Assembly: GCA_001873435.1 (NCBI GenBank)
Contig: MNZB01000004.1
Coordinates: 307,004 to 371,003 of the forward strand
Reading direction: 5' to 3'
Length of the DNA stretch: 64,000 nt
Source: Candidatus Pacebacteria bacterium CG2_30_36_39
GTDB taxonomy: Bacteria > Patescibacteriota > Microgenomatia > UBA1400 > PJMF01
The notes under the pieces are model-generated. The model worked only from the letters and a program-made list of their open reading frames with translations. It was not told the DNA's origin and did no database searches. This document shows, in pieces, positions 50,817 through 52,050 of the stretch. Made by a program: the position numbers and the translations under genes. The stretch's first letter is position 1; the number at the start of each line of letters is the position of its first letter.

Positions 50817-50846
50817 TTGACAAAAATAGCTTAAAAGAGTTATAGT
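50817..50846 (+). promoter_or_regulatory. Sigma70 promoter
   Basis: TTGACA (50817-22), 18 nt, TATAGT (50841-46). Confidence 0.65.
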
Positions 50847-50864
50847 GAATTACGTCAAAATAAA

Positions 50865-51174
50865 TACCCGAAAGAGTTCAGATGGTTTTGGAAGAACATT
50901 TGGACATGGAAGATCGAGTAGGGGATTTAAAAGACCTTAAAATCGGAAGAAAAAAAATCCACCGATTTGTAGATTCCAGAACATGGCAGGCAGAACTACA
51001 AAACGGTGGATCACAGTGCAACATTACCGCTGGAAGACCACGAATAATATTGCTCAGGTATTTCTCACGTTACTCCTCAGAGTGTGTGAGAGATGATCTG
51101 AACATAGCATTTTCGTCGGGTACGGTAAACTAGATATTTATGATTATTACTATACTTTTCTATATAGTAATGAT
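50865..51174 (+). ncRNA. Candidate structured RNA overlapping an 83-aa ORF (50882-51133)
   Basis: Helices 50865-71/51116-22, 50876-83/51096-103, 50957-72/50996-51011, 51059-69/51085-95, 51142-74. Confidence 0.4.
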
Positions 51175-51207
51175 CGAGGTTGGTGTATAATACGGGTTAT
51201 ATTTGTG

Positions 51208-51272
51208 AAAAGCGTTGGGTTGAAGTTCGGTCGGTTGGGCAGGCTACCGAACTTCAGCTTAACGCTTTTTTT
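51208..51272 (+). terminator. Long hairpin terminator (about 24 bp stem with G-U pairs)
   Basis: aaaagcgttgggttgaagttcggt...accgaacttcagcttaacgcttttttt. Confidence 0.75.
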
Positions 51273-51402
51273 ATTGACTAAATTTATTTTTTTTAAGCTC
51301 ATAATTTTTTTTATTTGACACAAATTGATATAATAACAACCTGTCTAGAAATCTTTAGGCACATTTGCTGTGTAAAATAAGATTTTTAGACATTTTTTAA
51401 GC

Positions 51403-51965
51403 TCGTTAACATGAGAAATTGTTTACAAAAATTAAGGAAACTTTAATTGATGCCTGGTCTATCTTAGATAGTCTTAGTCTGGAGAAATATATTTTTAATT
51501 CTTTAGACTGAGGCTATCTATTTGCTCTCACGTGAGTGAGAGGTTATAGCTGGTCTACACCAATTCAAGGAGTTCAATGATGAAAATTGTTGACATGCAA
51601 GATTTCTTCACCAGGCTTGTAAAAGATGTGGAGACAGTCGAAGCGCTACGCGCTAAGATTCGTCCCATGCTTGAGGATGAAGGATCAACCGACTACGTTC
51701 AGCCAGACGTCGAAACCAATTGCACCTGCGAGCGCAATCTACGTGCTCACCTTCAGGACATTATGGACGACGACCAGATTGCCCGGCTTGCGCTGGGGCT
51801 GGAAGAAGAGAACGAAGAAGGTTGGTTGGAGGATTTGCAGGCTCAATTCCCCAACTTAAAGATCTTTGTCATCGGCCCATAGCCAAAAGAATCGCGCTCT
51901 AACACAATGGTGCACGGCTTGCCGTGCACCATTCCTTGATTGTTTAAACATTCTCATGTTAACGA
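51403..51965 (+). repeat. Inverted repeats enclosing a structured leader, small ORF and 3' hairpin
   Basis: tcgttaacatgagaa (51403-17) is the exact reverse complement of 51951-65; pairing continues imperfectly to about 51438/51933. Confidence 0.85.
51577..51882 (+). CDS. Small acidic hypothetical protein, GC-rich relative to flanks
   Basis: AAGGAG SD 51567-72; 101 aa, D/E rich, CxC..H; about 50% GC. Confidence 0.7.
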   Translation: MMKIVDMQDFFTRLVKDVETVEALRAKIRPMLEDEGSTDYVQPDVETNCTCERNLRAHLQDIMDDDQIARLALGLEEENEEGWLEDLQAQFPNLKIFVIGP

Positions 51966-52021
51966 CTTCCGCTTTTAAAGTTTTAGAAATATATTTTACT
52001 CAAGTAATTTATCCTATAACA

Positions 52022-52050
52022 TTGACTTTTAGCTAAATATAAGCTATAAT
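52022..52050 (+). promoter_or_regulatory. Sigma70 promoter
   Basis: TTGACT-17 nt-TATAAT, 10 nt before ATG 52061. Confidence 0.75.

Follow-up and report, generated by a model that had tools for sequence, protein, structure and literature searches.

In pre-rRNA, NusB bound to boxA is proposed to retain the leader up to the point at which the trailer appears (PMC10250234), and the boxA consensus of E. coli is UGCUCUUUAACA (PMC13753749). In E. coli suhB, Nus binding at a boxA in the mRNA represses translation, and in mRNAs of this type Nus loading can block translation at a distance (PMC5725501). In B. subtilis, a 14-bp helix that joins the 5' UTR of the hbs mRNA to its 3' UTR modulates nuclease cleavage (PMC5737220). 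Here we describe a locus of an ultra-small parasite, Candidatus Pacebacteria bacterium CG2_30_36_39, in which boxA, a closing helix and a protein-coding gene occur together. It lies at 51399-51968 of the window, i.e., the whole stretch of 64,000 nucleotides of contig MNZB01000004.1 that was analyzed. The source genome (G000) comprises 976 kb in four contigs (C1 to C4), with ~35% GC.

The unit is flanked by a conserved small RNA gene and a sortase-like gene, and VirD4/HerA-like ATPase, radA, and rho-like genes are near. A VirD4-like gene had been noted at the outset as possibly meaningful; such a gene is indeed present, but its closeness carries no weight, because other units lie far from it (the C4 paralogue and the unit in the mraZ slot). 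The structured small RNA (window 50817-51275, + strand) has its own promoter and a terminator-like hairpin, folds with a z-score of -8.85, and matches in parts in 65 of 140 family genomes, with no match in Rfam. RNase P and tmRNA were ruled out as its identity, since both lie elsewhere in the genome.

The initial annotation, made from the letters only, described a small GC-rich gene enclosed in a structured RNA, and the structural core of this description is borne out. The 15-bp perfect inverted repeat (51403-17/51951-65) is within the minimum free energy (MFE) structure, together with the inward extensions 51420-25/51945-50 and 51430-38/51933-41 (with a U-G pair at 51433/51938), the long hairpin (51465-86/51499-520, four G-U pairs), and both the GUGA hairpin at 51525-42 and the CUUG hairpin at 51906-33. 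The + strand of the 565-nt RNA folds at -213.1 kcal/mol (z -8.89), none of 100 dinucleotide shuffles being as stable, and the - strand folds at -187.3 kcal/mol, 26 kcal/mol weaker than the + strand. The acidic 101-aa ORF was located at 51577-51882, with 50% GC vs 22-23% in the flanks, as had been seen in outline; the G+C counts per 60-nt block from 51580 are 23, 31, 34, 33, and 29 (31 and 35 had first been given for two lines). No part of the window matches Rfam at the gathering score, and the nine weak matches are chance hits of hairpin type. A genome scan for repeats of at least 13 bp finds several inverted repeats of at least 15 bp, so a lone one is not rare; this repeat is above chance because relatives, and a second place in this genome, have the same repeat around a homologous ORF. 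The parts of the unit are collected in Table 1.

Table 1. Features of the unit, with window coordinates and the basis of each assignment.
Feature	Position	Strand	Basis
Predicted extended -10 promoter (TG-N-TATAAT)	51326..51334	+	Sequence; motif shared, at a matching position, by the G001, G002, and L091 units
Leader hairpin just 5' of boxA, boxB-like position	51342..51392	+	MFE of the predicted transcript; equivalent inverted repeats precede other units
BoxA-like motif GCTCGTTAACA, predicted NusB/NusE site	51401..51411	+	Fits the 16S-leader pattern of the family; in 13/13 framed units
Closing helix, 5' strand, 15 perfect bp then bulged extensions	51403..51438	+	Fold; alignment of 13 units
Long 5'-UTR hairpin with G-U pairs	51465..51520	+	14/14 outer pairs change on both sides over 13 units; 92% of cells paired
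GUGA-tetraloop hairpin	51525..51542	+	Fold; 55% of alignment cells paired
Strong Shine-Dalgarno (SD) region UCAAGGAGU	51565..51573	+	Sequence; SD-like motif in 13/13 units
Acidic helical ORF, 101 aa (100 aa from second ATG), C-x-C-x6-H	51577..51882	+	GC3 0.57 vs genome mean 0.26
3'-UTR hairpin, G(CUUG)C loop	51906..51933	+	Fold; equivalent in most units, 71% of cells paired
Anti-SD segment	51931..51939	+	Modelled: pairs with SD (9 bp, -10.1 kcal/mol) or with 5' segment 51430-38
Closing helix, 3' strand, anti-boxA segment at its end	51933..51965	+	Fold; covariation

The 5' arm of the repeat is a boxA site, the whole has the leader-trailer layout of rRNA, and the unit belongs to a genome-wide class, three points that the first reading had missed. 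Among 30 16S leaders of the family, 29 have the boxA pattern, with T (10), A (8), C (7), or G (4) at its variable position, and one 16S-leader boxA, GTTCGTTAACA, is identical to the boxA of two units. In lambda and E. coli, the U6G change, which is present in the window unit, weakens NusB binding, and in lambda boxA it causes loss of function (PMC3177189), a point against the boxA reading. In the source genome, a boxA of the G type precedes a tRNA-Lys, and judging solely from its own rRNA and tRNA leaders, this family probably tolerates G at the variable position. The stem core AACAUGG/CCAUGUU is also similar to that of the helix between 16S leader and trailer, where 25 of 30 leaders have ACATG[GA], and the stem sequence is invariant because its 5' arm is boxA.

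The order of promoter, hairpin, boxA, and enclosing helix matches pre-rRNA, although the extended -10 element at 51326..51334 is not listed by a simple promoter scan. Three features of an rRNA-type Nus unit are found here: a boxA near the 5' end that follows a hairpin, a long enclosing helix, and an encoded NusB (PF01029 at C2:140061-140423, E 2.5e-23). The payload is a conserved ORF family with an SD, not rRNA or an untranslated stable RNA. The window unit would work like an rRNA unit, but is not one. The nusB gene is adjacent to and co-oriented with a small acidic ORF and rnc (C2:140061-141130, L100), and the genome also encodes PNPase (pnp). The 16S (C2) and 23S-5S (C1) genes are unlinked, each with its own boxA.

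A second unit, on contig C4, has the same 15-bp ends around an ORF 45% identical to that of the window. The search that had been proposed for the same ends around different ORFs thus gives one more pair in the source genome, with a homologous ORF, and no other pair. At the slot of the window unit, two units stand in tandem in two genomes of the same genus (G001 and G002) and in one metagenome contig. Single-arm pattern matches occur in 43 of 140 family genomes; among 40 regions fetched around such matches, five contain closed units (genera g2, g11, and g29) and 35 do not. The total is 13 units, in eight genomes and one contig from four genera of one Patescibacteria family, and all 13 frames carry members of one protein family. 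The site is empty in G004, and only the 3' arm is left in G003. The unpublished genome G488 underlies no statement made here.

Profile matches to the protein occur in 2 of the 401 class genomes and in 7 of the 140 genomes of the family, all in the same family, and there are eight real homologue clusters among 1.84 billion representatives, the single one with a taxon name being from Patescibacteria. One further match, a nematode repeat protein (P0009), was dropped as spurious. Relatives are absent from the viral contigs of IMG/VR, and a closing arm at unit distance is missing from all 16 viral matches to the 5' arm. Two homologues of ~200 aa (P0003 and P0004), on short contigs, have the whole domain duplicated in tandem.

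The alignment of the 13 units backs the proposal of an RNA-level structure, as 82.8% of its cells pair, compared to ~41% in slid controls, and 32 of the 55 pairs change on both sides, counts that overstate independence because the units are related. On the coding strand, the 5' hairpin retains its G-U pairs. Nine of the 15 closing-stem pairs are invariant and two are compensatory, and the GUGA hairpin is variable, given the low share of its cells that pair. Compared with shuffles of its synonymous codons, the ORF is the better folder at z below -2 in 10 of the 13 units, vs 6 of 34 control genes. Some units show deviations. The ORF of the G002 unit B (L048) has a stop ten codons past the SD-led start, with a second ATG right behind; the G285 unit (L052) has lost the 3' hairpin, and its ORF reads through the closing arm; and in G500 an extra inverted boxA-stem copy is found at the 3' end (L051:2590-2670), where a local hairpin could compete with the long-range helix.

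How the SD might be hidden is seen in modelled structures. Pairing of 51437-52 over the SD, as had been suggested, occurs in neither the MFE nor the centroid structure, and the best anti-SD helix involves instead the 3' UTR (51931-39). This 9-bp helix is possible in the window unit, but the MFE structure does without it, and forcing it would cost 6.3 kcal/mol (-206.8 vs -213.1 kcal/mol). The unpaired probability of the SD is mixed, from 0.00 to 0.46 over the units, with 0.41 in the window unit, and the best anti-SD helix sits in a UTR in 10 of 13 units, a count taken without a null model.

BoxA-led genes of the same kind recur in the genome. Its 903 ORFs of at least 90 aa have a mean GC3 of 0.26, and 15% of them have an SD-like motif; the 16S rRNA has a full anti-SD. 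An SD is found in 13 of 27 high-GC3 genes vs 120 of 876 others. We scanned the genome with the boxA pattern derived from 16S leaders, with the reversed pattern as control. Of the 26 intergenic matches, seven stand before rRNA or tRNA genes and 14 before an SD-led ORF, which lies 88-176 nt downstream of boxA and has a GC3 of at least 0.45 in 11 cases (two of the 14 ORFs, shorter than 35 aa, are possibly spurious). With the reversed pattern there are 22 matches, five SD-led ORFs, and three of these with high GC3. Five of the 26 boxA matches begin a perfect long-range stem of at least 12 bp. About a dozen GC-rich, SD-led genes follow boxA in an AT-rich, mostly SD-less genome.

The cargos of this class include lipoprotein-like, membrane, LemA, and macrodomain-like (by eye) genes; the LemA cargo has eight homologues, and PF04011 is found on these homologues. 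BoxA-led units occur on C1 (358404+, 190341+, 78083-, and 60600-), C3 (40262+, 40698+, 54072+, and 116243-), and C4 (90666+, 173901+, and 185808-); they are SD-led and mostly GC3-rich, with unrelated cargos, among them TPM-like plus LemA and a 38-aa Cys-rich peptide. A conserved motif, CCTATAACATTGAC, running into the -35 box is found at window 52012-52050 and at seven other sites of the genome; these sites mark strong promoters, and several head boxA units. The highest GC3 values of the genome (0.75 and 0.54) belong to two tandem paralogous coiled-coil-like genes (C2:207934-209318, - strand), each with its own promoter, a structured leader, and an identical terminator hairpin; the boxA pattern used here does not match them.

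The boxA-led class favours CGC, GGC, ATC, TGC, CTG/CTC, AAG, and CAG, yet keeps GAA (fractions: CGC 0.56, GGC 0.51, ATC 0.58, ATA 0.02, GAA 0.70), and differs in this from both the genome and its 22 ribosomal-protein-like genes. Because the class was chosen partly by GC3, only GC-neutral contrasts count. The ATA:ATT ratio is 1:50 in the class vs 3944:14030 (OR 0.07, p 1e-4); GTA/GTT, GCA/GCT, and ACA/ACT are unchanged, and CCA, TCA, and CGA shift, in both directions. ARAGORN finds a tRNA-Ile(TAT) at C1:285986 and only two CAT tRNAs among 46 tRNAs in total. ATA is also lower in the ribosomal-protein-like set (0.08), so high expression may explain part of the ATA loss.

The ORFs evolve differently from their surroundings. 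Between G001 and G002, the neighbours of the units show dS of 0.32-0.77 and dN of 0.01-0.06, and the frame has several 60-nt windows with 100% identity, whereas both unit ORFs are saturated at synonymous sites (pS 0.78, dN 0.5-0.6). An allele of genus g1 and one of genus g11 are 77% identical (dS 0.96, dN 0.20), more alike than either is to the slot mate within its own genus (40% in g1, 33% in g11). This points to exchange of ORFs by recombination inside a conserved frame. Both of these alleles keep a GC3 of 0.74-0.75, which argues that the high GC3 is maintained rather than recent. Three g11 homologues without a frame have a GC3 of 0.19-0.28 and no SD, compared to 0.32-0.75 in framed ones, and in the same slot G285 has a framed ORF with a GC3 of 0.59. 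Frame, SD, and GC3 travel together.

AlphaFold confidently predicts a small helical domain for the 101-aa protein (pLDDT 84.5, residues 1-70 above 85). The ORF has no Pfam match, no Pfam family is common to 18 aligned members, and the ESM Atlas gives no usable match. The structure search proposed initially returned no Foldseek match at E 0.001 in PDB or BFVD, and the best VIA-align Z is only 4.2; we therefore neither assign a fold nor claim a new one. A C-x-C..H motif is present in many members, H..CxxC is added in four, and cysteines are absent in three, which suggests a variable metal site. The fast turnover suggests conflict with a host or phage. A DNA mimic was considered and rejected: it has no structural support, and of the three homologues of unit-A type without cysteines two are basic.

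Transcription is hinted at by two aquifer RNA libraries from two studies, in which three mismatch-free contigs lie wholly within the unit (51531-51731, 51703-51853, and 51744-51895); the hint is a weak one, because the runs were picked for holding the stretch and DNA may be included. Full-length cover is lacking in runs X1 and X2 for the upstream small RNA and for the genes next to the unit, and runs selected in this way cannot rank genes. Runs X3 and X4 have short partial matches only, and no circle-type joint is seen among the contigs of the four runs.

We propose, with a probability of roughly 0.45, that the unit is a native, nuclease-resistant mRNA made in the manner of rRNA, likely kept silent at first and translated only afterwards, by ribosomes of the cell itself. 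NusB and NusE would load on boxA, and the message would be made by Nus-modified RNA polymerase, untranslated during synthesis and shielded from Rho. The 3' end would then pair with boxA and close the RNA, and the stem could shield both ends from the cell's own RNases and might be an RNase III site; opening of the anti-SD helix would release translation. The high GC3 might reflect selection for folding, combined with frequent allele exchange, and the protein may be a small metal-binding factor interacting with host or phage under diversifying pressure. Of the stabilised, translationally locked mRNA imagined at first, a closed, probably stabilised RNA is supported (by covariation, and weakly by the RNA-library contigs), and the lock is plausible in the models. 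Several points weigh against the proposal, among them the U6G change and the mixed accessibility of the SD. In the modelled fold, boxA would be hidden within the closing stem of the finished RNA; distant anti-SD pairing in B. subtilis favours decay, not stability (PMC12697547); codon usage is unlike that of the genome's ribosomal-protein-like genes; and folding offers no explanation for the GC-neutral loss of ATA.

These last points are where another reading gains, namely that the same closed RNA is exported untranslated via a contact structure and that the ribosomes of a GC-rich host make an arms-race effector from it. We regard this, the main rival, as unlikely. The first reading had raised translation in a host as a speculation, to which the codons and SD sites lend some indirect support. 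In its widest form, it would make the unit one cassette of a dedicated class of host-codon mRNAs that Patescibacteria build with the rRNA machinery and deliver for translation into their effectors. It would account for the SD sites of the class in a mostly SD-less genome, for codons that resemble neither the genome nor its ribosomal-protein-like genes, and for the near absence of ATA despite the tRNA-Ile(TAT) found by ARAGORN, and it is consistent with a GC3 kept high in two alleles about one synonymous change per site apart. Several cargos are membrane- or lipoprotein-like and would probably resist injection in protein form. In culture, a Microgenomatia parasite is linked by tubules to its GC-rich Chloroflexota host; it takes up host RNA and is predicted to be poor at host-like codons (bioRxiv 10.64898/2026.06.21.733656). 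However, the only RNA flow described in the available text of that preprint is from host to parasite. The organism studied here could also make the proteins of the class itself, because an intact anti-SD, 46 tRNAs, Lgt, and LspA are present; the absence of Lgt or LspA would have favoured host translation. In addition, the ribosomal-protein-like genes are ATA-poor too, AT-rich homologues without a frame persist as intact genes, and a structured mRNA needs a strong SD in any cell.

The exchange data raise a third reading, which we consider doubtful: an expression slot into which GC-rich ORFs of foreign origin (hosts, phages, or an RNA replicon) are captured by recombination again and again, the GC content being that of unameliorated donor DNA. 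Saturated ORFs (pS 0.78) beside a conserved frame and conserved neighbours are what such capture would leave in G001 and G002, and so is a g1 ORF that is 77% identical to a g11 ORF whose own slot mate is 33% identical; the homologues P0003, P0004, P0006, and P0008 are without known origin. Nevertheless, no donor is seen among the 401 class and 140 family genomes, where all matches are in the same family, and the viral contigs hold no relative and no closed unit (0/16). Moreover, 13 of 13 frames hold one protein family rather than random cargo.

In the type I toxin mRNAs hok and aapA, and in icaR of S. aureus, long-range fold-back can hide the SD. A toxin-antitoxin-like module of type I with a toxin mRNA inhibited in this way would share with the unit the 5'-3' pairing and the anti-SD segment on the 3' side, as well as the patchy presence, the tandem copies, and the fast evolution. 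It is quite improbable, because the protein is 59-184 aa long, soluble, and mostly acidic instead of short and hydrophobic, a simple scan finds neither a promoter nor a terminator on the minus strand and no antisense gene was seen, and the boxA layout is common to unrelated genes.

MITEs and mobile insertion cassettes have short terminal inverted repeats around a small unit, and a non-autonomous DNA transposon of this kind, with 15-bp ends and a passenger gene, would explain the exact terminal repeats at several loci and the empty site in G004, but it is very improbable and already largely refuted: the flanks are without the target-site duplication expected of IS or MITE ends, there are only two divergent copies in 976 kb, each unit has its promoter and leader hairpin outside the repeats, G003 keeps only the 3' arm, as after a deletion, the covariation is strand-specific with G-U pairs conserved on the coding strand, and boxA accounts for the conserved repeat sequence. 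The toxin-antitoxin, DNA-mimic, and mobile-element options raised initially thus found no support. A dif/Xer-site or attC reading of the repeat, made by eye, was dropped because the second arm is not conserved. A retron was likewise discarded: the only RVT_1 match (C4:110371-111075) lies beside an Avd-like ORF, as in a diversity-generating retroelement (DGR), and none is near the window unit. The reverse transcriptase locus (C4:108871-112575, L102), with the Avd-like ORF upstream and a template-like region, is organized as in such a retroelement and lies in a GC-richer island of C4, ~20 kb from the second unit.

The locus touches on two open questions: how Patescibacteria act on their hosts, and why AT-rich genomes keep GC-rich hypervariable genes. 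BoxA plus closing stem is a simple rule by which candidate host-interaction genes can be picked out of any genome of this kind. Microgenomatia-host co-culture allows a direct test of whether these RNAs enter a host or are stored, as in the native mRNA that we propose; if true, an effector route by which one bacterium delivers mRNA to another would be an interaction of a new kind.

BoxA in mRNAs (PMC5725501) and 5'-3' UTR helices (PMC5737220) are each already known. The open-access literature, to which our search was confined, yielded no report of their combination in a class of swappable GC-rich genes. Like the unit, E. coli suhB and a Citrobacter ParE-like gene have boxA in the mRNA 5' UTR (PMC5725501). 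In these mRNAs the distance from boxA to the start is mostly no more than 50 nt and boxA promotes termination by Rho, and the available text reports no closing stem or codon shift (PMC5725501); in the units described here, boxA is 125-218 nt upstream of the start and paired with the 3' end. The hbs mRNA of B. subtilis shares a structured 5' UTR and a strong SD with the unit, but it is one conserved housekeeping gene, for which the available text mentions no boxA, compositional anomaly, or allele swapping (PMC5737220). The rRNA operon leader, with its boxB-boxA-boxC antitermination site, has the same hairpin, boxA, and long leader-trailer helix around a payload (PMC10250234), and the unit follows the boxA pattern of the family's own 16S leaders in a genome that encodes NusB and RNase III. 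It differs from these leaders in that the payload is a hypervariable SD-led ORF and that boxA itself forms the 5' strand of the closing helix; the rRNA machinery is apparently reused here for mRNAs.
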